Below are positions 26,386 through 64,000 of a DNA stretch of 64,000 nt, piece by piece (within the stretch, counting starts at the first letter, position 1; every line of letters starts with the position of its first letter). The DNA lies in NCBI GenBank assembly GCA_051294905.1, contig CM119372.1:32676001-32740000 (forward strand). The letters are read 5' to 3'. The notes beneath the pieces were generated by a model. That model saw only the letters and a program-made list of their open reading frames with translations, made no database searches and was not told the DNA's origin. Source of the DNA: Botryllus schlosseri. Its lineage: Eukaryota. The translations under genes and the position numbers were made by a program.

Positions 26386-28447
26386 TAAACAGTGATGATG
26401 GCCTCACTCACCCACCGTAAAGGTTATTATATACTCAGATTACCGTATATATTGTTTGGTTTGAGTAAGTGTTGGTAGCAGGTATTTACTGTACCGGATA
26501 CAATGTCAAAGTTAAATAACGTGTAGGGATTACCCAACATCGCCTTAGGACATGTCTACATCGAAATCTCGGCCCACTTAAACTGTCACTGCTACTGCCA
26601 CAAGGACCGGGGTCGTAATATTGTCTTCGCTATCAACTTGGTGGGTTACCCACATGGTTCCCCAGAAAATACCTCTGTAATATGGGGCCAAAAATGTACG
26701 GTTCCCGATTGGTTTCACCAGCTGGTTACCACAATTCATCTCACCTTGATACCTTGTGGTACCAGGCGCGTATCCAGAGCGCGAAAAAGGGGGGGGGGTT
26801 GCGTTACGAAATTGGCTATTGTGACGTCATCATTATGATCACTCGTCTCCACACCATGGCGAATATTTAATATATTATAGTTTAATAATAAACAGAGATT
26901 TGCGGTGAGTGGGAGATGTACGAATACGATACGGACATTGCCTGAAAATCGCGTTTCTTTTAATGTACGATTGAAAGAAATTCGTAAATGCTCACATTTA
27001 GTCATGAGCCGGCAAACGCCGCCCGTCTTCAAGCGCCTAGTTGCAATCAGAGATGCGCGATTTTGTTGGGTTTTGACGATATTATGCGCTCGGTCGGTAG
27101 TAACGCAGCGGACGAACAAGCGCGGAATAGGGCGGTAGCATAAACGAGGGCGATCGCCACAGAGAGGTGTGGTGTGAACAGTGTACGTCGTACACGAATG
27201 TGTGCTTTTCGATGGCTTTACTAGCCGTACGGCTGAGCGTGTAGTACGCGCGAAGATAATTAGACCTTAATTGCAAGCACGCAAGTCAGTCAACTAATAC
27301 AGAGTACACACTGGGATAATAACTTGATCGACAGAGAAACTTGTCAGCCGATATAATTAGGTTAACTTTACTACTAGGCCTACTCAATTCTCCCGTTCAG
27401 CGACAACATAGGCCAGTATTTGGACGACAGCAAGCCACCTAACAATCGAGAACGTGGATTGCTAGGCTTGTATTTTGAAATGTGAATGTCAATCCTAGGC
27501 CATTTCTCGCCAATAATCGCGAATACAATGTGGATTTGAGAATAGCATTGTCGTACTGGTGCCGTCGTGTCTGCGTCTCGCTGATCAATCAACACGCCGC
27601 GTGCAATTCATAATTAGGATTTCATGGCGAGCAGGTGCAGCGAATTCGCGAGCGATGTTGATTGCCGACAACTTCGTCTTTCCAATTACGTATCGCGTCG
27701 GCCAATTAGATTAGATTTTCCTAAAATGCGTCTCTCGTTTTAGCAAGCCGAGAGAGAAATCGAGGGAAGAAAGTTGAGAACGTCGGCAATTGCCACAGCT
27801 GAAATGTAGCTGAACAAGCGCAGAATTCGTATGAAATTAGCGAATTATAATGACCTATTTTATCCTTTCGACTAATTCGGCGCATAATTCCAATATTTTG
27901 TAGGGGTGTTAGTCCCCTTAAATAACATCAAGACGCCATATTCGCCTTTTCATACGTAAAAACGAATATGTTAAACTAATAAATTAGCAAATATTAGAGG
28001 CTATATTTGACATCAATTTTTATGATTTTGAAAAGGGGGGGTTCCGACCCCCTAAAACCCCCCTGGATACGCCACTGTGTGGTACCCAAGCAGGCGTGCT
28101 ACCTGGGTATAGGGTTACCACGTCTTGTGCGCTTTTTTTACTTTTTTGAAAGCGTCCTCGGAAGACGCCCTCTTGTCCTCTTTTTTGAGAAAATTGTTAA
28201 AATTTACGGCCAAATTCGACTGATATGCCGTAAATCAGCACCGAAGTACCGCCCTGGCGGGTATTTCGGAAGCTGAGCCGGGTATAATTGACCATTTTGT
28301 TTGGTCAACCACGCTGATAATGTTAAAGCAAAACTGTATTTTGGGCACTGAGCGAGAAAGTTAACCTTTTTCTGTAGTCAACCAACCACGAAGTGGGAAA
28401 AATTTACCATTATTTCAGGATTTTCCTCCGGTTTTGCAAGTCTAAAT

Positions 28448-28474
28448 CAGGGATATCTAGACTAGATATCCTTG
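28448..28474. mobile_element. 27-bp palindromic micro-element
   Basis: CAGGGATATCTAGACTAGATATCCTTG flanked by GTCTAAAT/ATCTAAAT (7/8 TSD match). Confidence 0.65.
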
Positions 28475-28764
28475 ATCTAAATATTATGAAAAAGTGTCCT
28501 CTTTTCAGATTTCCAAAATATGGTAACCCTATAGTATTAGGGATATGGTGTGAACCTCCGAAAGGTTCAGGTTCGTGTGAACGCGAACGTAAACCTCATG
28601 ACGTCACGTGACGTCATATTGCTAATACCAAACCTACATTTCAGTGAAGTGATAGTCTATATTAATGTATACACACGATATCTAGCGACGGCTCAGGCCA
28701 CATCATGCCACAAAGGCTGGAGTATATATTGACGTTTTAAACGTCGCCAATGGACCAACTCGAG

Positions 28765-40689: not shown

Positions 40690-41310
40690 TCACGGCATTG
40701 AATGTTATTGCGGTGTACTTGTATATATTTTGTGTGACTTTAATTTATTTGTATATACTGTGTGTTTGATGTGATTTATTTGTATTGTGTGTTCATGTAT
40801 CATTTGTTTTCCAGATCGATAACACTATTACCTATCTAAAGTCTATCATGTCATTATATTTAAATAGTTTACATGTAGAGATGATTACCTTGGAGTGGGA
40901 ATTACCACAGTTCATGATTCTTGGTTTTACCAAACATTCCCCAACGTCGATGATACCCGATTGATGAAAAAGCAGATCACCAAAACTTGTGCTCCGTGGT
41001 GAGGTCTATAGTTTGTTATCGAAACACTATATTTTAAAGCGCTATGAACGTACATTATGAATCCTCTAATGTGATTTATTATTTTGCAGATTGGGATCAG
41101 CTGCTTGACGACCTGAAGCATTCGTAACACTACAACTTCCACCGATGATGAGGAACAGATGAAGATTTCATAACCAGTGGAAAATTGTTAAATCGAGCTC
41201 TACTGGGGTTATATATTCCACTAGAACAAGATGACTACAACAGTGGATATTCCAACCTTGTTGATATATAAACACATACACTTTATCGAGTTTTCAATAA
41301 ACAACAAACG

Positions 41311-41919
41311 ATGGAATTGATCCACCCATTCGCGTGTATTGTGAGTGGTCCTTCAAGAAGTGGGAAGACTACTTTTGTTGCAAAGCTGATTAGGCATGCC
41401 ACATCAATGATTAAACCAAGTGTATCCAGGGTCGTATATTGTTACAATAATTATCAGGAAGTTTTCAAGACGATGCATAATGTAGAATTTCACGCCGGTC
41501 TAGATATTTTAGAAGAGTTGAAGGTTTGCTTTGAAGACACCTTGATTATAGTGGATGATTTCATGGCTGAGACCGCGAAAATTGCAGACTACTTTACAAG
41601 ATTTTCACATCATTCGGCCAATTCAATTTGCTATATCACGCAGAACCTGTATCACAAGGGTAAAGGAGCACGTGACTTGAGTCTTTCAAGCTCGTATATG
41701 GTGATTTTCAAGAATCCGCGCGATCAACAACAGATCAGTTTTCTTGGTCGACAAATGTACCCAAACTCTAGATTTTTAACAGAGGCTTATCGTGACGCTG
41801 CTGGGCAACCTCATAGTTATTTATTCCTTGATCTCACGCAAGAAGCACCTGAAAATCGACGAGTTATGACCAATATATTTCCTGGTGAAACCATGGTGGT
41901 TTATAGCCCGATGGTATAA
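41311..41919 (+). CDS. Genome-packaging ATPase (A32-like, FtsK-HerA superfamily)
   Basis: Walker A GPSRSGKT, Walker B LIIVDD, ITQNLY, FKNPRD; intact. Confidence 0.92.
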   Translation: MELIHPFACIVSGPSRSGKTTFVAKLIRHATSMIKPSVSRVVYCYNNYQEVFKTMHNVEFHAGLDILEELKVCFEDTLIIVDDFMAETAKIADYFTRFSHHSANSICYITQNLYHKGKGARDLSLSSSYMVIFKNPRDQQQISFLGRQMYPNSRFLTEAYRDAAGQPHSYLFLDLTQEAPENRRVMTNIFPGETMVVYSPMV

Positions 41920-41952
41920 ATAGCCAAGCGCAGAGACGACTTTAAACTCAAA

Positions 41953-42300
41953 ATGACCAAGGTACCAGCTCGGACACGACGGCATATACCCACACTAGAG
42001 TTCCTACATAAAAGTAAACCCGAGATACGCAAGCAAATTATATCGGGAGCCAGCAAAGAATTTATCGAGTGTATATGCGATTGTACAAAGAACATTTTAA
42101 ACGGCAACATCCCTCTTTCAAAGTATAAAAGAAAGCGACTATCAGTTCATAAATGTAGTTTACGTCGACTTGTCAGGAAAGACATCCCTATTCGACATAA
42201 GAAACGTATGGTTAATCAGAATGGGGGTATGTTTATGACTCTATTATCAAGCATCCTACCCGTCGTCACTGGTTTACTCGGTAATCTTTTCAAAAAATGA
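41953..42300 (+). CDS. Basic Polinton core protein with C-terminal amphipathic helix
   Basis: K/R-rich; QNGG followed by MFMTLLSSILPVVTGLLGNLF. Confidence 0.7.
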   Translation: MTKVPARTRRHIPTLEFLHKSKPEIRKQIISGASKEFIECICDCTKNILNGNIPLSKYKRKRLSVHKCSLRRLVRKDIPIRHKKRMVNQNGGMFMTLLSSILPVVTGLLGNLFKK

Positions 42301-42692
42301 CTTCTTTTAAAAAAATCTTCATAAATCCGAATCCGATCAACGAGGTTGAAGTTCAGAAATTGAATTTGGATATCGACAAATGTATGAGCGACATATTACA
42401 GATGAACATACCCCAAGAACGAAAATTAGCCTTATATAACGACGCACTAAATCGTTATCAAACAAAACACGACACACTGAATCAACAGATGAAAATCGAT
42501 ATATCAGAACAAAGGAATCTATTTTCGGCTAGTGAGTTGGACGCACTGCGACGCCTGATCAAGGGTGAACCATCAAGGATTCCTATACCATCACCGAGTA
42601 GCCAACGAAGCAAAGTAAAGACTCAGCATGCCCCGACGAAGAGCGGTCGTACACCCAAGACCCCGAGACGATACGGATGGGAGCCGTACTAA
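42297..42692 (+). CDS. Polinton protein of unknown function upstream of the integrase
   Basis: DKCMSDIL...ERKLALYNDALNRY pattern; ATGA overlap with the previous gene. Confidence 0.6.
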   Translation: MTSFKKIFINPNPINEVEVQKLNLDIDKCMSDILQMNIPQERKLALYNDALNRYQTKHDTLNQQMKIDISEQRNLFSASELDALRRLIKGEPSRIPIPSPSSQRSKVKTQHAPTKSGRTPKTPRRYGWEPY

Positions 42693-43698
42693 GTATTTCA
42701 CGCCAGGGCTACCTGGTAGTTACCGCGGTGCATACGTATTCTCTAGAGGGCGGAATAGAGCCAAAGTCAAGGAGTTTCTTTCGAGCAAGGACGCGTACAC
42801 AAAACATTTTCCCTATCGAAAGAAATTTAAGAGACCTAGAGTGATTACGTCCGGTCTTGGTGTTCAGTATCAAACCGATCTCATGCATATGCAAAACCTT
42901 TCAAAAGAAAACGACAATTTTAAATATGTGTTGGTGACGATCGATTGTTTCAGTCGATTTTTATATCTGTATCCACTCAAGAACAAAACCTCGCATGGTA
43001 TTATTCGCGGATTCAAGGAAATATTTAAGGATCGTATACCTCATGTTATTCAAAGTGATCAGGGTTCCGAGTTTACTAACCGTGCGTTTCAGACTTTCTT
43101 AAAATGTAACAATGTGCGACATTTTCATACAGATAGTGAACTGAAAGCATCGATATGCGAGCGTGTTATTCGTACTCTGAAGCAGGTATTATACCGCTAT
43201 TTCACGCATAATAAGACTTTGAATTATGTCAATGTCCTGTCTGAGATATGCCAAGGGTATAACACTACTTTTCACGTGGCTATAGGGTGACCTCCAGCGG
43301 ATGTTAATTATTCAAATCAAGAACAAATTTTCCATAGGTTATACGGTGACATGACCCCTAAAAAACCCAAACTAACTATTGGCACACCAGTCAGGATTTC
43401 GAAATCGCGTGGTAATTTTGTAAAAAGTGCCTTGGCAAGTTGGACCGAAGAAATCTTTTTCGTATCTCAATGTCGTAAAGGTGACCCTCCTACTTATCAG
43501 TTGAAAGACTACCATGGTGAAGTTATAGACGGTAGATTTCAACGCGAAGAGTTACAACCAATAACTAAAAATAATAATATTTACAATATCGAAAAAATCC
43601 TGTCTACTCGCAAGAAAGGAAAGAAAACGCAATATCTTGTAAAATGGTTGGGTTACCCGTCTAAATTGAATTCCTGGGTCTCGGATTTGTATAAATAG
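42628..43698 (+). pseudogene. Retroviral-like DDE integrase with C-terminal chromodomain; one in-frame TGA
   Basis: YQTDLMHM, IQSDQGSEF, KASICERVIRTLK; TGA at 43288-43290, then same-frame YNIEKIL...YLVKWLGYP...NSWV. Confidence 0.93.
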
Positions 43699-43707
43699 AC
43701 GCTGAAA

Positions 43708-43941
43708 ATGTTGTTCAACCAAACTATGGATTCTGATTCCGTCTCATCTCGCATGGGTCAAGTCTCGAACAGTCTGAAAAACCAGATTGCGTTTATTGTA
43801 CAGATTTGTATGTTAGTGTGTGTAATCGTGTTTTCATTATATCACATTTCTGTCGGGGTGGATCGTGAAATATATTTAACGCTACTGTCTTCTTCACTTG
43901 GGTATTTATTACCGAATCCATCACCTCACCGTATATGTTGA
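43708..43941 (+). CDS. Small Polinton membrane protein
   Basis: Hydrophobic IAFIVQICMLVCVIVFSLY and IYLTLLSSSLGYLLPNP. Confidence 0.6.
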   Translation: MLFNQTMDSDSVSSRMGQVSNSLKNQIAFIVQICMLVCVIVFSLYHISVGVDREIYLTLLSSSLGYLLPNPSPHRIC

Positions 43942-44698
43942 AAGAAACAATAAAATGTTGTTGACTCTACCTTCGAATGCGAGTTTGGATAAATTTCCGA
44001 ATACTAGCACAGATTTTCAAACGGAACTTTACAAAGAATTAGAAATGAATCGCCATGAGCTAGGATTATGTGAGCTGACCTTCCCCCATGATTTTCAGCC
44101 GCGAATTGAAGTGACAGCGAAAAGTATCGGTTTTGGATTTGTCGATGCGAATGGATACACCGAACGGTATTATATTCCCGAAGGCTCGTATTACAGCATC
44201 GGTGAAATGTTAGAATCGTACGAGAAATATTACATGGGGGACATTTTCATTTTACGAGGATTCGGTGACTTTAGAATCACATTCAGAAGATTAGTCACGA
44301 GTAAAAAAAGACACAAGCGAGCTGCATCCATAAATACCGATACCGCAGACTCTAGCGCCAAACACATACCCCGTACCACGCATGACTCACCCGAGCCTTA
44401 CGGACTGATACCGCTAGGTTCTGTGTTGGACACAATAACATTTAGACGCGTTGTATCTCGTCGCCGCGGAGTGGTAGAATTTATATTTACACCTGCGATA
44501 AAGTTGGAACGGATTGATAAGGTTTATGTGTATTGCGATCTGATACAACCAAGACCACATGGTAACAAGCTGCAACAACTTTTACGGGTGGTTACTGTAA
44601 CCGCTAAACCGAATGAAAACCAAATCAACATATTCCCAAAACCATACTTCTTTGCTTTAGCGAGAAACAATTTTAGAACAATACGAATTTATCTACGT

Positions 44699-46169
44699 CA
44701 GTGGTTCTTAACCTTGCCTCCAGCGCCCCCCAAGGGGCGCTGGCGATTTTGAAGGGGGCGGAAACGCTCAGGGGGCGATATGGGGGGCGCTGGGCTCAGG
44801 GGGGCGATATGGGGGGCGCTGGAGAAAAATGGCTTCGCAGTAGATGATGTGGTAGTAGGACATATCCTTAATGAGTATTCAGAGCGAATTAACACTGAAA
44901 ACTTCGTTATATATAGCCTACAAAAGGCATATAGGTTTAATTGTCCATGGGCGCCTATAAATGACTGGCACCGAATGTTTCTGTCTTGGCAATCTGAACC
45001 TCAGAAGACGAATTCCATCTGGCTGGGAAAAATTATATGCCAGTGAAGAAATACCAATTTGAAATCGTGTGCGTCTTTTAGTTTAGTACGATTGGGCGAC
45101 AGGGATATATAGAACTAGATATCCCTGTTGGGCGATATCCCTGTTGGGTGATTCTATATTTTTTGATATAGCAGACAGGAGGTCACGAAATAACATTATG
45201 CAACGAAGTCATACCAACGGGTCCGCTCGCCCGAATATGTTTAATTATTAGTTACGGCCCCTACAGTTTCCAAGATACCTCACAATGTTCCCTTTACGTT
45301 TTGACGAGTCTGCGCACACCCACTAACTCACTGCGCAGACCCTTGAACAACAGTGCGTAACGACTAAAAAAAGGTCATAACTTCGGATTTGTTGGGCGTA
45401 ACGTAGATTTTCTGTGCGCAGAGACCGTGTCAGCACTGCGCACGTGCGCAGCTTAGAGGGAACATTGCACCTCACTCAGCTCTACCGGTAAATCTGGTAA
45501 CGTGAGCAGAGAGGACAAGAAATTGATAGCAATAAATGCAATTCCCTATCTTACTGACCGATTTTATCATGAATTATCGAAAGTTTTCGCGCTTCGCACT
45601 GGCTCGCTAAACAGTACAGCTGATTTCGTGGCAAAAGCGAACAACGTGATGGGTCGGTTTATCACCGTATGGGAGCCGAAGACCCAAGTTTTTTTCGGGG
45701 GCCCTGGCGAAGTGCCGTTTCGTTCCTGCCAACGGGTATACGCCCGAAGATGTATAATTATTATTGAGGGGTCCTACCTTTTCAATCACACATCACTCAG
45801 CTCTACCGGTAAATCTGATTACGTGGGCTGAGAGGATAAAAAGTTTATAGCGACATATATATGTAATTACCAACTATTCATTCATGCATTATAGAAAATT
45901 TTGGTACCTAGGGCGACCAGGCCACACAAACTTTGCTGACCATCGAAATCACGCTACGGGGTTCTTGGGAGCGAAGCCATCAGAAGTTTGGTTTCTCATG
46001 CTATAGGTGCGCAAGGCAATCGTTTTTAGGGGGGTTGACGAAGTGCTGTTACGGCCCTCCCTCTTACTCATTGTCTTTATTACATTCCTTACAATATGAG
46101 GTTGGGGGGCGCTGGAGCACGATAATTTTTGAAAGGGGGCGCTGGAGGAAAAAAGGTTAAGAACCACTG
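44699..46169. mobile_element. hAT-type non-autonomous element, 1471 bp
   Basis: CAGTGGTTCTTAACCTT...AAGGTTAAGAACCACTG; perfect TSD ATCTACGT. Confidence 0.92.
45100..45127. mobile_element. 28-bp palindromic micro-element
   Basis: CAGGGATATATAGAACTAGATATCCCTG flanked by perfect 8-bp TSD TTGGGCGA. Confidence 0.75.
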
Positions 46170-46260
46170 ATCTACGTGATGCAGCTGGCAACCCTATTAA
46201 ATTTCGAAAAGCACCAGTGACAGTAACCCTACGCTGCCGTCGTAGAGCTGTTGATTCAAT

Positions 46261-46932
46261 ATAAGTTACATCACGTTGTCTGGCACCCAAGGTGAATTCT
46301 CGGTGGTGTTACCGAATGAAATTATTTGTAATGAGCTTGCGTTAATGGATATGAGTTTTGTCAGTGAATCTCTTGATCGAATTATAATCAATCGTGATCA
46401 AGCACTCTGGGAGCTACATAACGAAAAAGATCGAGTAGTAGAAGCGTACCTAACACCACTTGGGAATTATGCAAACAACCTCGAGTTGATGCGAAGAATA
46501 TTATCAGACAGTTTCAAACACTGTTTCACCGAAAGAATCAACGATGAACTTTTCCGAATTCGTTACCCGAAACATATCACACTCCATCCCACGGATATAT
46601 TCACAAATTATTTCACTGTAGTTGATCAAGTGTCGACACCAGTATGTAATGTCTCGTCGATCAAATCTAAACCAACTCAACCCCACCTCAGATATCTATT
46701 TGTGTATATCAATGTACTACGACATCATCCGGTGGGTGATTACATGAGTCAATTGCTTCGTGTGATCCAAGTAAATAACGAGACGTGTATGAGACAAGAA
46801 GTTGTATTTGAAAAACCGTTCTATTTCCCAGTATCGATTAACCACATCCGCGATATAAAAATCACCATCAGGGACCAATACGGTCAGTTAGTATATGATA
46901 TAGAGACCACATTGACACTCCACGCGCGATGA
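46261..46932 (+). CDS. Minor capsid protein (penton) paralogue 2; start codon apparently mutated ATG>ATA
   Basis: ELALMDMSF, YLFVYINV...VGDYMSQLLRVI, YFPV, ITIRDQYG. Confidence 0.75.
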   Translation: MSYITLSGTQGEFSVVLPNEIICNELALMDMSFVSESLDRIIINRDQALWELHNEKDRVVEAYLTPLGNYANNLELMRRILSDSFKHCFTERINDELFRIRYPKHITLHPTDIFTNYFTVVDQVSTPVCNVSSIKSKPTQPHLRYLFVYINVLRHHPVGDYMSQLLRVIQVNNETCMRQEVVFEKPFYFPVSINHIRDIKITIRDQYGQLVYDIETTLTLHAR

Positions 46933-47324
46933 AAATAGTGATGTTAACCACCTCTATGCTTGGTACTGATTTTGAACACAGACTACTCACCATCAACAAC
47001 ATCCCGACGAGATATTGCGAATTAGCCCTCATGGAGATCGATTTCACTTTAACCGAACCGGCGATTGGTCAATATTTGTTTGTGTATTGCGATATTATTC
47101 ACCCTCACTTACTTGGAGATACGTTAGCGAATTTATTACGAGTTATACCGCTGACACCCGGCGATGTCGCACATAATTGGATAGCGACAAATCCGTATTA
47201 TTTCCCTGTTTCAAAAGATGTTGTAGATTCTGTCTGTCTTTACCTCAGGGATGAGTTTGGGAAGCCTATAAATATAATAAGTCGTTCATTGCAAGCTACA
47301 TTTAACATTAGGAAGCGATTATGA
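46929..47324 (+). CDS. Minor capsid protein (penton) paralogue 3, minimal 131 aa
   Basis: ELALMEIDF, YLFVYCDII...LGDTLANLLRVI, YYFPV, LYLRDEFG. Confidence 0.8.
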   Translation: MKIVMLTTSMLGTDFEHRLLTINNIPTRYCELALMEIDFTLTEPAIGQYLFVYCDIIHPHLLGDTLANLLRVIPLTPGDVAHNWIATNPYYFPVSKDVVDSVCLYLRDEFGKPINIISRSLQATFNIRKRL

Positions 47325-47692
47325 AAGTTGTTTTCACGTGTGATCATCATTCTGTCCATCGTCATTATAACCAGACAGGCGATGGTTATGGATATTTTAG
47401 TGGTGGAGTTCAAGCCGGTTCCGGTATCGGGAGTTTGTTTAAATCACTTGGTCGTTTAGTGACACCTATTGCGAAATACGCTGGCGGTCAATTGTTACGG
47501 ACTGGAGGTGAAATAGCGAGAGATCTATTACGGGGTAACTCGATCAAGTCTAGTGTTGTCAAGAGAAGTAAACAAGCTGGCGGTCGAGTGATTGATAAAA
47601 TTTTAACCCCAAAAGCTATAAAAAGGAAAAAAACAAAGTCAAAGAACACTTCATCCAAACGTCGTCGTAAACAACAGGATATATTCGACTAA
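47321..47692 (+). CDS. Polinton core protein (adenovirus pVI/pVII-like architecture)
   Basis: QTGDG and QAGSG motifs, then amphipathic IGSLFKSLGRLVTPIAK and a basic NLS-like tail. Confidence 0.7.
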   Translation: MKVVFTCDHHSVHRHYNQTGDGYGYFSGGVQAGSGIGSLFKSLGRLVTPIAKYAGGQLLRTGGEIARDLLRGNSIKSSVVKRSKQAGGRVIDKILTPKAIKRKKTKSKNTSSKRRRKQQDIFD

Positions 47693-47697
47693 GAACT

Positions 47698-50600
47698 ATG
47701 TTGATGCATGCGGGTTCCCGAGAATGTCATAACTCCGGATTAAACATATTTAGTATACCCCACACGCAAACCAGTATTGAAGAATCGCAATATGTCGTCG
47801 TCAAACCCCATAGTTTAGGTAATGTCATGGAAGTACAATTACCGAGGACGGATCGATATATGGATCTACAAAACACATTCTTGAGATTACGTTTGAAGCT
47901 CACTAAACGCGATGGATCTGATTTAGCAAACGATACACAAGTGGGTCTTGTCAATAACATGATGGATTCTCTTTTCAAACAAATCGATGTAACTATTTCA
48001 AATGAGGTTATCACAAATTCGGATAATTGTCATGCCTACAAAGCTTATATCGCTCGGTTGTTGAATGATACTCACGGTGCCTCGGAGAGTTTTGTGCAAG
48101 GACAAGTATTTTATAAAGATGTCGCTGGCTCTATGGATGTTCTTGGTGCAGCGAATACTGGATATGTTAAACGAAAAGACCTTACCAAAAACAGCACCCC
48201 GCTAGTGTTGATCGGAAAAATTCGAATGGGTCTTTTTGAACAGTCTAGATCAGTGGTTCTCAACCTTTTTTACCCGCGGACTCATCTCAAGCTCGCCAGT
48301 ATACCCGCGGACTCAAGCTATATATTACTGAAAATTTTTTTTTTCTATCCGAGGGAGTGTAATACGGTATCAACAAAAAATGAGCTAAAATTGAGTCAAG
48401 GAAGCTTTCTTAAATCTGTCTTTCCACATCTGTCGGCTTTGCAATTCAAGCAACTATTCAGTAATGCAGACCACATCTCGAGTTCCACTTATATTAGACA
48501 ACTATAGACTGTTTCTGTGATTAGCACATGTCCCTACGATTTGTAATTTCCCAAATAGTCTGTAAGTGAACAAGTCGCCATAATCAATTACCAGCACTCA
48601 GCGTATATCGCGCCGGAAACCTGTGCAATGTGCCTACGTGCAGGGCCGTAACAGCACTTCGTCAGCCCCCCTCAATAACAAAACGTTGGTCTTGGGCCAC
48701 ACAGGCCTTAAACCTAACTTCTGGTGGGCTTCAACCCCAGACCCCCCTTCCGATAATTTTTCTAAAAAGTTGCATAAATTTTCAAAAAACACTCTATAAT
48801 TTATGTTAATTCACGAATAATTTTGGCCCCCCTTCGAGGTCCCCCCCTCAATTATGGGGGTTTGGTGTACGGCAGTTACGGTCCCGCATACGTGTGTAGT
48901 GTATAAAGAGCTGTTTATACCTGGCATATTCTGTATGTGAATTGTTAATAGTGAACACGCGGCATTAAATTCCGAGTCCGGTCGTACTAAATTCAAGTGA
49001 ATCCGACCAAAATTGTAGAGTTTATGACCGTGATAAAATTGCTTATGACAATTTTAGCAATAGGCTATACCTCGAACATAAATGTAGGGCATTTTGAAAA
49101 ATTCCAGTTGGCGATAATTGGGGTTTTATACCTGGCGTGATTGGTATCAAACCAGGATGATGCGACAGATGTGCAAAGCATACCCGTTTTGCCTGTGATA
49201 CTTGCAACCAACTGGTTTGCCCAAGACACAGAAAATCTCAGGAGAACCAATAATGCTTGGAATGCTGATCAATTTGTAGTGGTGCTGTTTCGTTGTTCTT
49301 GCGTTTGAAATATACGTGGCCAAACATCGCTTATTGAGGTATCTCTAATATTGCTTCCAAAACTACATTCACTGCAGTATAATTTATTAACTTGCAGGAA
49401 TTTCGTATGCCCCTTATCAACAAGAGGTAACGGTACAATAAGAAGCATATAGAAAGAGATTCAAACAAAATCCAAATTGGCAAAATATGACGTAACAAGG
49501 GAATGATAAAAAGGAACGGTAGCTGGCCAAAGTCAGCTGTACCGGTACTCCGGTAGTCATAATAAAGGGATAATAGAGAATCAAATTATACGATACTCAG
49601 AAGACGTTACACAGACAATTAGCGGAATATATTAATGGAATATTGAAAGATTGTATACAAACTCTTTAGCCTTTGTATGGTGCCGTTAATTCTTGATAAG
49701 GGAAACCCGAAAAGTCACCGAGGTAATAAATTCTACTGCAATGAATGTAGTTCTGAAAGCACTATTGAAGTTGAGTGCCGCCAGTCACATATTTGAGGTA
49801 TCTATGCATTTTTTATGACAGCTATTAAGGTTACTAACATTTCAAAATAGGTATTTTGCAAATCACTCAGCCTAATCCTCAAATCGGAATTTGACGAAAC
49901 CGGACCAGGACGGGGCTCATTCACTTTCGGACCAAAAAGCTATTTTTTCCGTAAGGCTGCAATGACTTTGGTCCGAAAGTGAACGAGCCCCGTAGGTCTG
50001 TCAATTACATGTTCCGAAATCATATCGGAAGTGGAAGAAAAAGTGTGCCGAGCCGATTGAGTTACTGAAAATTCCTGTGTTCGCGGACTCACCAAGGACC
50101 TTCCGCGGACTCAAATGAGTCCGCGGACTCGGGGTTGGGAAACACTGGTCTAGATGTATGTTGGATAATGTCGACATGAAACTAAAATTTACACATAACG
50201 AAGATAATTTCTGTCTTCTCGGTGACGCGGAGGATGTACAAATTGTTTTACTCGAAATGGAGGTGTATGTCAAACAGATGAAGATCGCTGAAAGTGTAAG
50301 CCTAGCACACAAGTCTGTACTACAGAAGAATACTGCCAAGTATCCCTGGATACGCTTACAAATGTCGACTCATACATTCGCCGCGGGTTTGTCGAAAATT
50401 GATAGAGAGTTAGTTAGCGGCACCATGCCAAAGAAGATCGTAATTGGTTTAGTCGAGACCACGACATTTAACGGTGTTCGAGCCAAAAATCCATTCAACT
50501 TTAAACACTTGATGTTCAAAATCTTTCGTTAAGTGTGGACGGGCGTCAAATTAACGGACGCGAATTTCATTTCGATTTTGATAAACATGGCGGACTCGAA

Positions 50601-61174: not shown

Positions 61175-63204
61175 CAGACATGGGGTAATCGTGATTAGTA
61201 ATCGTAATCGATTGCGACGATTACAGCATATTCAAGTAATCGTAATCGCAATCGATTACATTCGAGAAAATTCAGAAGTAATCGTAATCGTAATCGACTA
61301 CTTCCCATATTTAATCGATTTCTTTGTGAAAGAACGATTACTTTTTATTTGTACAGGACTATGACATAAACTGAGCATTCGTGAACATAGAAGAGGTATT
61401 ATACCAGTTAGTGATAGCACAAACGTCAGATTTTCAAATGCCACTGCTCATTATTACGTCAGAAGTGGCCTATTAGCTTTGCTCGTCATCGTGTTAGAAG
61501 TATCCAGCTATCCACACATAGTGAATAGATATTCGATGTACATTAGTGTGATTGTAAGAACACTCATCGTGCTGTATATCAGGTTATCAATACATTCTAG
61601 AAACCAGCACTACCTCGCAGCACGATAATTAATCACTACTCTGCCTAGTTTAAAATAGTAACTTTTGTATTGATGTTTGGTTAAGCTTAGTTAAACGCAG
61701 TTTGACCGTTGCTGCTTAGCGAGCAGTAGGCCTAAGTATCACGAACGTACACCGGACAAAGGTTTGAAATTTTTTAGCCTAATCGTCAAATAAAGCATTA
61801 CGGTTTCCACGACGAAGCATTAAAAATCAACAGCTGCTGATATATATCATAACCGAGCCGTTTCTCGTGATGGCCGCTTGCAATACATTATCTGTATTAA
61901 GTTGAAGGCAGAAGTTTATGTTCACTTTCTCTTATTCTGATAAGAATCTGCTTGAAACGGGCACCGTTATTTCACAATTCTGTACTCAAAATTTGGACCT
62001 GCCGCCATAGTCCTCGGCTTATATACAATGTTAGCGTGGCTTGTAGCTAGAATCAGGACAAAAACAGCAAATCGTCCCCCACTCCAAACGTTGGTCTTGG
62101 GTCCCTATAGGGTAGCCTAGTTAATTTTCAAGTTGAAGATTTAGTTTCGTCAATAATATTGGTAATTGCAATATATTACTATTCATTTTTAACATTCTCT
62201 CAGCCCCCGATGGTCAGATTTATCTGAAGAGCTGGGAGCACGCAATTCATAATTATAACATCTGGTATCTTGTAATAATTACTTTAGGGTATGTTGTTAA
62301 TTCGTGACCTTCGGTCTGTTATATAATCAAAAGATATTGTTGTGGTCAAAACGTAGCAGACTAAAAGAAATACTTGCGTGAGACGCACACACAAATTGCC
62401 ATGTCTTTAATGCTCTGTGGGTGCCAGGGTGGCATTTGCATTGGGGGCTTAGATTGGAAGGACCGGACTATTAGTCACGCCCACCCAGCTCGGCTATTGA
62501 CAATGAACGCATACCCCAAGTTTCGGCCAATGTCTTTCATTAGTAGCACACTTCGTGGGTTCGCATGTTGGCCGAAACTGCATATGTATTTTGCAGGGAT
62601 ATCTAGACTCTAGATATCCCTGGTATTTTGGTGTGTCGTGGCGCAGTATTGACTGGCACCTAAATGCCTGTTACTATAAATGATGCATGAGGAGACGTAG
62701 GCTATGCATTTCAAAATCAAGCTATCTAGAGATATTTAAATCGCAATGCTCGTAGGCAATTTCCAAGTTCATGAAATCTCTCGAAAATAGTCTATAATTT
62801 GCGTTGGTTTACGAAATACTTTTGAGTCCCCTTCGAGCTCGCTCCCCACCCTATTAGGAAATTTGGGGTGCGGCAGTTGTGGACCTGGCAAGAATGCAAA
62901 TCGTTGGGTGCGATAAATCGTCCAATATAAAATGGGCAATGGGTACTTTATGACGTAACAAGCAAATGTCGCATCTTTTTAAAAGAAAGTTTTTGTCTCA
63001 TTAGGCCTTTGTCTTCCAATATAAGTTGTAAGAAGCCAAATATATGTAATCGTGAGTAATCGTGATTACTTTTCCAAAGTAATCGTAATCGTAATCGACT
63101 ACTTCCTGATTTTGCTGTAATCGTAATCGTAATCGTAATCGCGTTATTCAGAAGTAATCGTAATCGCAATCGATTACATTCACGAAGTAATCACCCCATG
63201 TCTG
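61175..63204. mobile_element. hAT-like non-autonomous element with GTAATC subterminal repeats, nested in the piggyBac relic
   Basis: CAGACATGGGGT...ACCCCATGTCTG; perfect TSD TAAGGAAC. Confidence 0.88.
62594..62622. mobile_element. 29-bp palindromic micro-element
   Basis: CAGGGATATCTAGACTCTAGATATCCCTG flanked by perfect 8-bp TSD GTATTTTG. Confidence 0.8.
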
Positions 63205-64000
63205 TAAGGAACACCGATTCCTCTTCGGCAACGTGTTTACTGTTTGCGGGGATGAACTTCGAAAAGCTATCAAGCCACATCTCAACATAGCCTCTCTTGT
63301 GGCTCTGTGGTGTTGTCTTGTCTGTCTTGTCATCATGTGGGACAAAATGAGGCATTTATTAGCAAGATATGTTATGAAACTTCGCTGCTTTGAACCTTGT
63401 CCACTCTTATGATCAGGATATACTTGACTGAATATAGTATATGCATTTAGAGCTGCGATGTCGAGCAGACTGTAGAAGAGAACTAGAGGTCATCGGCAGG
63501 TTTGTCGTTTGCAAGTGTATGATAGAACCATTTGGTCAATCAAGTCCACACAAATCTGGTTATAAAATCTGATGATCACAGGCCTCTTTTTTCTATTTCA
63601 ATTGGCTGCGGGTCAAAATGACCCCTGTTATGCATTCTCGGGGTACTTAATGAAAAATGCATTTTTTTGTCAAAAGTAAAATTGTACAGAACAATTTTTT
63701 CTCATCATGTATAAGTATAAAAGACTAACAAAGGCAAGAAATTCCAGAACTTAATTCCCAATATGTGTTAAGCAGTTATGATGAGTAGCACCGTTTGGGT
63801 CATTTTGAACCTGTTCTGCATTCTAGGGTTAAGAAAGTTTTTGATAGAAATGTCAACAAAAATTAGCAGGAGTTTGTAAGAAGCGACAAAATAAATGTAT
63901 AAAGCAGAATTGTTAACTTAGGGTCCGTGAATCTTTCGGGGGTCCGGAAACTACTATCCACAGGTTCCATGAAAAGGCCAAAAAGTCCAGTGATTAAATG

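Follow-up and report, generated by a model that had tools for sequence, protein, structure and literature searches.

A palindrome of 27 to 29 bp occurs three times in a 64,000-nt stretch of DNA from Botryllus schlosseri (here called the window), each time between short direct repeats, and the question raised by this locus is whether so small a sequence is itself a transposon or the remnant of something larger. An earlier note on this DNA held that the palindrome behaves as a mobile element and proposed either an ultra-minimal transposon or a recurrent internal-deletion footprint of a larger hAT element. We found that the palindromes are the outermost 13 to 19 bases of both ends of a P-type element, joined head to head and flanked by an 8-bp target-site duplication. 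We consider it highly probable that they are scars of P-type excision and not mobile elements, and we refer to them as scars below.

Three palindromes in the window

The three palindromes reported earlier, at 28448, 45100, and 62594, are present, with lengths of 27, 28, and 29 bp, respectively. Each also has the 8-bp direct repeats ascribed to it, identical at 7/8 positions for copy 1 and at 8/8 for copies 2 and 3. The features are as follows.

28440..28447, unstranded: left target-site duplication of copy 1, GTCTAAAT; the word is single in paralogs
28448..28474, unstranded: copy 1, 27-bp scar of two P-type end stubs, with one substitution in the right arm
28475..28482, unstranded: right target-site duplication of copy 1, ATCTAAAT; 7/8 identical to the left word
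41272..48507, plus strand: open reading frames (ORFs) of the large host element of copy 2, given for context only; integrase core, chromodomain, and a weak P-loop match
45092..45099, unstranded: left target-site duplication of copy 2, TTGGGCGA
45100..45127, unstranded: copy 2, 28-bp scar fixed in a multicopy host element; base 10 of the left arm is A for C
45128..45135, unstranded: right target-site duplication of copy 2, TTGGGCGA; 8/8 identical to the left word
45136..45151, unstranded: extra sequence of copy 2, consisting of 8 bases of the right arm, TATCCCTG, and a third target word, TTGGGTGA; present in 20/20 aligned host loci
62586..62593, unstranded: left target-site duplication of copy 3, GTATTTTG; single in paralogs
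62594..62622, unstranded: copy 3, 29-bp scar with no substitution in either 13-base arm
62623..62630, unstranded: right target-site duplication of copy 3, GTATTTTG; 8/8 identical to the left word

With up to two mismatches allowed, the 13-mer that forms each arm was found 6 times in the window versus an expected 0.85 (standard deviation, 1.10), and a count of 6 was reached in 0 of 100 shuffles. When possible stub joins were enumerated (see below), copy 3 proved to be a simple join with 1-base microhomology. The bases behind copy 2 (45136 to 45151), which the earlier note overlooked, are a 16-bp tandem duplication and likely a templated repair product.

A genome-wide series of short forms

Genome-wide counts were obtained by exact-site search of the 495.5-Mb assembly, in which the window spans positions 32676001 to 32740000 of contig CM119372.1, with the 13-base arms required to be exact. 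The 13-mer alone occurs at 1282 + 1274 sites (2 + 1 in the control). Two exact arms separated by a spacer of 0 to 6 bases (26 to 32 bp in all) were found at 230 sites, and those with a spacer of 7 to 37 bases (33 to 63 bp) were found at 208 sites, with no site of either class in the control. Arms may also overlap: a 14-bp form, overlapping at GATATC, occurs at 144 sites (control, 1), and a 22-bp form, overlapping at CTAG/TCTAGA, occurs at 132 sites (control, 0). The 14-bp form was predicted before it was searched for, and the 22-bp form was first noticed among the 13-mer matches. Spacers of 38 to 68 bases were found at 2 sites only and spacers of 69 to 99 bases at 4 sites (control, 0 for both), one of the latter being two separate scars ~45 bp apart. 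Elements of 64 to 125 bp are thus nearly absent, with 2 + 4 sites versus 438 sites of 26 to 63 bp.

Exact-armed scars number at least 714 genome-wide, which bears out the high abundance suggested from the three window copies, and the two products with 6-base microhomology (14 and 22 bp) make up 276 of these 714. Twenty solo 13-mers on contig 1 comprised 12 clear scars with a mutated other arm, 3 probable scars, and 5 ends of longer elements, two of which were duplicates of one locus (L024). Since solo 13-mers are mostly scars with a mutated arm, the figure of 714 is a lower bound; a share of nonindependent sites due to hitchhiking enters this and all other scar counts. By exact count, the 28-bp type accounts for 73 of the 230 sites in the 26- to 32-bp class. 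Among the 50 sites at the head of the listing for this class, tallied by hand, lengths of 28, 31, 27, 32, and 30 bp were seen 20, 11, 6, 4, and 3 times, respectively, with 6 others.

Long elements with the same ends

Pairs of exact arms lying far apart led to two longer elements, of 2557 bp (L022) and 7.5 kb (L023), each with perfect 8-bp duplications. Reading frames of L023 gave matches to THAP (8.9e-17) and to the N-terminal domain of a TNP-like RNase H (2.9e-7), and a piece of its protein had 71 genomic matches at E <= 1e-10. From those matches we fetched six transposase loci with long open frames. The terminal 13-mer and the adjoining inner bases bound all six, with A for C at base 10 in two loci and one other substitution in one left end, and perfect 8-bp duplications flank four of these loci. 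The earlier reading of the palindrome as a pair of transposon ends that abut each other between target duplications of 8 bp holds. Longer elements with these ends, which the earlier note had proposed to look for, do exist: they bear a transposase and are 3.6 to 4.0 kb long (3576 to 3973 bp in the six loci).

Uninterrupted ORFs of 961 and 969 amino acids were found in two of the six transposase loci. The 961-amino-acid protein (P0001, from L042) matched THAP (3.4e-14), TNP-like_RNaseH_N (7.5e-10), and TNP-like_GBD (1.3e-6), all above Pfam cutoffs; the last match points to a predicted GTP-binding domain. One homolog of this protein is named by its source “Transposable element P transposase.” In the ORFs between these ends, Pfam reported only THAP and TNP-like domains and no hAT domain. 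The parent elements thus have the protein architecture that defines the P superfamily (THAP plus an RNase H-like domain with a predicted GTP-binding insertion) as well as its inverted repeats and 8-bp duplication. Since a P-type transposase lies between them, the ends belong to the P superfamily and not to hAT, so that the hAT assignment made earlier must be given up in favor of elements that encode THAP plus TNP-like transposases. As members of that superfamily, the parent elements are new.

The inverted repeat of the long elements is ~30 bases long and continues past the 13-mer with AACT, one variable base, and CGGGAT. Ends that are exact through CGGGAT number 41 (versus the at least 714 exact scars) and comprise three variants with one, two, or three A residues after CTAG; 22 of them carry the middle-length variant. 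Local BLAST of flanks revealed empty paralogous sites for two of the long elements, L042 and L046. A candidate short P element with 1096 bp between exact ends (L021) was rejected, as it proved to be a different element that carries an 8-bp duplication of its own and lies nested within a scar. This nested element has CAGTG-type ends.

Junctions and the length of the retained ends

Each scar arm retains the element tip and one GGGAT word. In the genome search, only a single site had arms reaching base 20, and it is identical to a 19+19 blunt join; arms extending into the inner CGGG word were found at 0 sites genome-wide, and every scar lacks the subterminal CGGGAT word that all long elements have. 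We enumerated the joins possible between stubs taken from four long elements, with arms allowed up to 24 bases. The 14-, 22-, 27-, 28-, 31-, 34-, and 37-bp forms are simple joins, with microhomologies of 6, 6, 3, 3, 3, 2, and 0 bases, respectively, and no simple join required an arm longer than 19 bases. In the sample used for this comparison, 11 of 20 distinct forms required filler or a repeat variant outside the model. Read by eye, the fillers are repeated stub words, such as ATATCTAG and AACTAG, and those of the longer forms look copied from the stubs.

The retained ends are therefore bounded, as would be expected of P-type scars, and show no continuum to longer derivatives; the one exception to the 19-base limit is a joint in a sequencing-run contig, with an arm of 23 to 24 bases and a filler of 32 bases. 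The value of 19 bases for the cut offset rests on few microhomology-free joins (the one 19+19 site and the 18+19 forms), and most junctions can be explained with arms shorter than 19. One idea is that the cut is measured from the inner CGGGAT, which would give stubs of 18, 19, or 20 bases according to the repeat variant; the informative microhomology-free joins were seen for the middle variant only.

A first alternative is that the palindromes arose by internal deletion, through aborted copying of a sister template or hairpin-mediated slippage, instead of by joining of stubs. Internal deletion is the route to the short nonautonomous P elements of flies, 0.5 to 2.8 kb long, in the sections available of one review (PMC7776569), and the contig joint with the 23- to 24-base arm and 32-base filler would fit it. 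However, deletion breakpoints should spread along the element, whereas no arm in the assembly extends beyond base 19, and although the inverted repeat of the parents is ~30 bases long, nothing past base 19 is retained. The scarcity of 64- to 125-bp elements (2 + 4 sites versus 438 smaller ones) also argues against such an origin, which we regard as quite unlikely. The earlier suggestion of an internal-deletion footprint of a larger hAT was close in one respect, namely, that the palindrome is most likely the footprint of a larger element. The hAT identity does not stand. Nor are the scars internal deletions as usually understood, since short elements with longer retained ends are essentially absent.

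Target-site duplications and independence of sites

A genome-wide search with scoring of target duplications had been proposed earlier. We scored 50 scars in listing order (15 each of 14, 22, and 26 to 32 bp and 5 of 33 to 63 bp). The flanking 8-mers were identical at 8/8 positions in 20 scars, 7/8 in 12, and 6/8 in 9, so that 41/50 reached at least 6/8, compared to 0/50 in a shifted control using 8-mers 16 bases further out. A few of the misses are 7-bp duplications offset by one base. The 50 scars fell into 43 flank clusters, which indicates that most sites are independent.

Different kinds of junction behaved differently in this respect. Independent sites with perfect duplications share simple joins, such as an 18+19 join present at three of them, and among the recurrent types sampled, only joins that are blunt or predicted by microhomology recurred at independent sites. 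A 39-bp form with complex filler was confined to one host-repeat flank (3/3 loci), as was a 36-bp form with a shared substitution (4/4 loci). The commonest complex form of 36 bp was seen in two distinct host-repeat locations; we attribute this to recurrent templated copying of one stub word, and it is a weak point of our interpretation. Internal sequence or substitutions shared across independent sites, the sign of descent expected of MITEs (miniature inverted-repeat transposable elements), were not seen in the sampled recurrent complex types.

These observations bear on a second alternative, that the palindromes are micro-MITEs cut and reinserted by the P-type transposase. Such elements would account for the presence of one sequence at many places, each with a newly made 8-bp duplication, and identical 28-bp copies do exist at 73 places, many with perfect duplications; the element tip and one GGGAT word are kept in each arm, and several length variants occur at one host-repeat site. 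However, the 14-bp form is too short to contain two ends, yet its flanks are at least 6/8 identical in 12/15 cases. Variation among copies is concentrated in the center and microhomology guided, and among the recurrent types sampled, the forms with distinctive fillers or substitutions were restricted to few host flanks (the 3/3 and 4/4 cases above and a third form at two flanks). Moreover, the subterminal CGGGAT word of the long elements is always absent, while in Drosophila, according to the portions available of PMC7776569, the transposase binding sites are internal to the terminal repeats. We consider cutting and reinsertion of the palindromes as micro-MITEs highly improbable. An ultra-minimal mobile element, as first proposed, is hard to reconcile with a series that runs down to 14 bp with target duplications, stubs that stop at 19 bases, and junctions at microhomologies.

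An origin as footprints or mini-elements of the hAT superfamily has next to no probability. The ends begin with CAGGG and are accompanied by an 8-bp duplication, and the CAGTG-ended element with an 8-bp duplication nested in the L021 scar suggests that hAT-like elements of this kind may exist in this genome. However, all six long elements examined encode a THAP/TNP-like P transposase, with no hAT domain reported by Pfam, and hAT excision, which involves hairpin formation on the flanks, is not known to leave stubs of the element.

Host repeats and hitchhiking

All three window copies sit inside other repeats, those of copies 1 and 3 being high-copy repeats. Paralogs of these hosts provided the empty sites that the earlier note had suggested comparing. 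Copy 1 plus one target word (35 bases) is absent from 11/11 aligned paralogs of its host repeat, and copy 3 plus one target word (37 bases) is absent from 12/12. Since the paralogs lack exactly the palindrome and one target word, copies 1 and 3 represent true insertions with target duplication, and their absence from every aligned paralog marks them as events private to those places. An adapter or assembly artefact can be dismissed for practical purposes, given that each copy has its own target duplication, that empty paralogs exist, and that contigs of four sequencing runs (from three studies bearing the same species label and one bearing another label) include the palindrome, along with variants of its spacer.

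Copy 2 has a different history. A 551-base segment surrounding it matched 40 scored genomic places at 93 to 100% identity over nearly their full length, and a 34-base diagnostic word across copy 2 has 125 genomic occurrences with no more than two mismatches. The palindrome, its substitution, and the triple target word are present in 20/20 aligned loci, the window's own included. Since copy 2 is identical in all aligned host loci, it was made once and then multiplied with its host, that is, by hitchhiking. ORFs of this host matched an integrase core (rve; 5.3e-16) and a Chromo domain (6.1e-10), and the host may be a Maverick/Polinton-like element. The three copies had been described as lying in unrelated contexts. 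This must be qualified, as each of the three is embedded in another repeat and copy 2 was inherited with its host. The claim of mobile behavior is not supported, given the multiplication of copy 2 by hitchhiking and the confinement of distinctive forms to few host flanks.

A further host repeat carries a scar at one site (site A) in 51 copies. Thirty of these were examined; all 30 were short, and none contained a full element. Site A scars are chiefly a 36-bp form and its point mutants, along with 28-, 22-, and 42-bp versions. The length variants differ by gain or loss of 8- and 6-base repeats within the scar, and slippage therefore suffices to explain them, without new excisions.

A model for the origin of the scars

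We hypothesize that the scars arise as follows. Insertion of a P-type element would create an 8-bp target duplication. On excision, the transposase would cleave one strand at the tip of the element and its partner ~19 bases into the inverted repeat (versus 17 in Drosophila), which would leave a 3' single-stranded stub from the element on each flank. Since identical stubs are unable to pair end to end, pairing would take place at short self-complementary words: pairing at GATATC would yield the 14-bp form, pairing at TCTAGA would yield the 22-bp form, and pairing at CTA or TTC would yield the 27-, 28-, and 31-bp forms. Near-blunt joining of stubs would give forms of 34, 37, and 38 bp, and copying of short runs from the stubs, by end joining of the polymerase theta type as in flies, would give those of 33 to 63 bp. 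We infer from the analogy with flies that polymerase theta may act at these junctions. Scars within other active repeats would then be copied along with them, as in the case of copy 2, and scars may change length by slippage between their short internal repeats.

Among the copy-3 paralogs, site A, the flanks of long elements, and the run contigs compared with L044, no position was found to carry a full element in some copies or individuals and a scar in others. We therefore infer excision from the anatomy of the scars and the fly precedent. When the flanks of eight long elements were compared with fetched loci by local BLAST, only empty sites and no same-site scar were found. In an alignment of the flank of L042 with a further site (site B), the homology stops before the site. 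Two copy-3 paralogs carry an insert of ~236 bp that was considered as a possible filled site and rejected, since it lacks P ends and lies a few bases away; it looks like a short retroelement-like insertion. For positions 61900 to 63300 of the window, which are very repetitive, run contigs contain joints that skip 37 bases, and these are best read as empty paralogs, not as alleles. No run contig bridged L044 from flank to flank, and since the joints seen at this element have 19 to 20 bases on their short side, they derive from scars elsewhere.

A variant of this model is that scars are still recognized, recut, or moved by the P-type transposase. If so, they would be the smallest known eukaryotic transposon substrates, and scar mobility would explain the 22-, 28-, 36-, and 42-bp versions at one host-repeat site; we regard this as very unlikely.

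What the scars may record

Most cut-and-paste families other than the P type leave only a few bases behind on excision. P-type transposases cut far inside their own ends, and their scars are therefore long enough to recognize. If the excision model is correct, independent germline excisions of a single family are preserved here by the hundreds. The cut offset of a noninsect P lineage could then be estimated without bench work (~19 versus 17 bases), the germline end-joining spectrum of a nonmodel marine animal would become visible, and excision could be measured relative to the surviving elements (at least 714 scars versus 41 exact ends). For annotators, the lesson would be that tiny palindromes flanked by target duplications are easily taken for novel mini-transposons and that scars of this kind spread further inside other mobile elements. 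In the literature outside subscription journals, we found no genome-wide census of natural P-type scars.

Comparison with known systems

The closest parallel is the P element of Drosophila. In the parts available of PMC7776569, its transposase is described as cutting the 3' end at the tip and the opposite strand at a distance of 17 bp into the 31-bp repeat, insertions as giving rise to 8-bp duplications, and the donor break as being repaired by homologous recombination or end joining. Junctions left by excision of P{wa}, as far as they are set out in the accessible portion of PMC2895639, consist of the 8-bp target word, a stub of up to 17 nt, microhomology or a templated insertion, a second stub, and the target word again; the templated insertions reach ~49 nt (Chan, Yu and McVey 2010, PMC2895639), and polymerase theta is credited there with long microhomologies and complex insertions. 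The Botryllus palindromes have the same anatomy, including a fixed stub maximum (PMC2895639, same portion). In both systems, to judge from that partial account, self-complementary stub words are used in pairing and fillers run to tens of bases. The differences lie in the stub limit, which in the fly text at hand is 17 bases compared to 19 here, and in the end sequence, CAGGGATATCTAG... here, which is unrelated to CATGATGAAATAACATA of Drosophila P. The fly junctions covered by those excerpts were obtained in the laboratory, whereas those described here are natural, are fixed in the genome of a wild animal, number at least 714, and were recognized from sequence alone. Unlike the fly junctions, many scars here were multiplied by hitchhiking in other mobile elements.

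Zebrafish Pdre2/THAP9, in the available parts of its descriptions, resembles the parent elements in being a noninsect member of the P superfamily with a 13-bp terminal core and 8-bp duplications (PMC10983969, PMC7776569). It likewise has a THAP9-like transposase, but its terminal sequence is unrelated to the ends described here (PMC10983969, likewise in part), and those portions of the two accounts do not describe stub-type scars (PMC10983969, PMC7776569). A further difference from Pdre2/THAP9 is that several of the lineages here have uninterrupted ORFs, of 961 and 969 amino acids.

The hAT transposons have the 8-bp duplication and the CAG start in common with the palindromes, but the transposase superfamily differs. 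Since both features are common to P and hAT elements, they do not discriminate between the superfamilies. In hAT footprints, the duplicated target bases are altered and the element ends are not known to be kept. MITEs, finally, are like the scars in being short, in having inverted-repeat ends and a target duplication, and in their high copy number. The scars differ from them in measuring 14 to 63 bp, in having no internal sequence or subterminal binding word, and in that the differences among copies lie at the junction.

Intact P elements and repeated insertion

Two P elements, P-superfamily transposons with the same ends as the scars (short palindromes made of two P-type end stubs lying head to head), were found to carry uninterrupted transposase frames. 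Coordinates are those of each genomic locus.

L042 3620-6502, + strand: uninterrupted transposase frame, 961 aa; element with a perfect 8-bp duplication
L043 3635-6541, - strand: uninterrupted transposase frame, 969 aa; element with a perfect 8-bp duplication
L043 2127-3275, + strand: 383-aa frame that borders the P element at its left end

Because both loci combine uninterrupted frames with perfect 8-bp duplications, the P-type family is, judged from its sequence, a candidate for one that may still be active. The start of the 383-aa frame, compared by eye, resembles a non-LTR retroelement endonuclease.

The intact element at L042 sits in a repeat family that also has a scar ~300 bp away, with the target word (the 8-bp sequence duplicated on both sides of a scar) CGTTCACA (flanks of L042; L011, L074, and L124); therefore, that repeat has been struck by P elements at least twice. 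The L042 insertion site is empty in paralogs. Two distinct scars separated by ~45 bp were observed at another place in the same assembly (G000:C6:5285971-5286071).

Scars as sites of change

At a host-repeat site with the target word CCGAGAAT (e.g., L165 to L194), scars of 22, 28, 36, and 42 bp were present, the commonest being the 36-bp scar together with point mutants of it. Scars at this site, copied along with the host repeat, change length through gain or loss of internal short direct repeats.

Other insertions were observed in a scar or close to the counterpart of a scar site.

L021 (G000:C1:6716101-6717596), about 225-1272: ~1-kb element whose inverted ends are of the CAGTG type and which is flanked by an 8-bp duplication of its own, TTCTAGAT

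This element is inserted within a P scar, and a reading of L021 as a 1.1-kb P element was rejected in favor of a nested insertion with its own duplication. Two close paralogs of the copy-3 host repeat, L092 (G000:C13:19662900-19664100) and L093 (G000:C7:20159450-20160600), carry a ~235-bp insert that lacks P ends and lies a few bases from the site equivalent to copy 3; by eye, one end of the insert resembles a tRNA-derived short retroelement.

When window:61900-63300 was compared with contigs under a different species label (run X6), these also spanned the palindrome; thus, the same family may be present in a related species.

The host element of copy 2

Copy 2 lies within a large multi-copy element.

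Window 41272-48507: ORFs of the element flanking copy 2; rve (5.3e-16), chromodomain (6.1e-10), and a weak P-loop match
Window 45128-45151: 16-bp tandem duplication beside copy 2, in which the right arm's final 8 bases are followed by the target word

The target word is therefore present three times at copy 2, and the tandem duplication was found in all 20 of the 20 aligned host copies. The 551 bp surrounding copy 2 are 100% identical to L048, on a different contig. The rve match is to an integrase core. The host element may be Maverick/Polinton-like.
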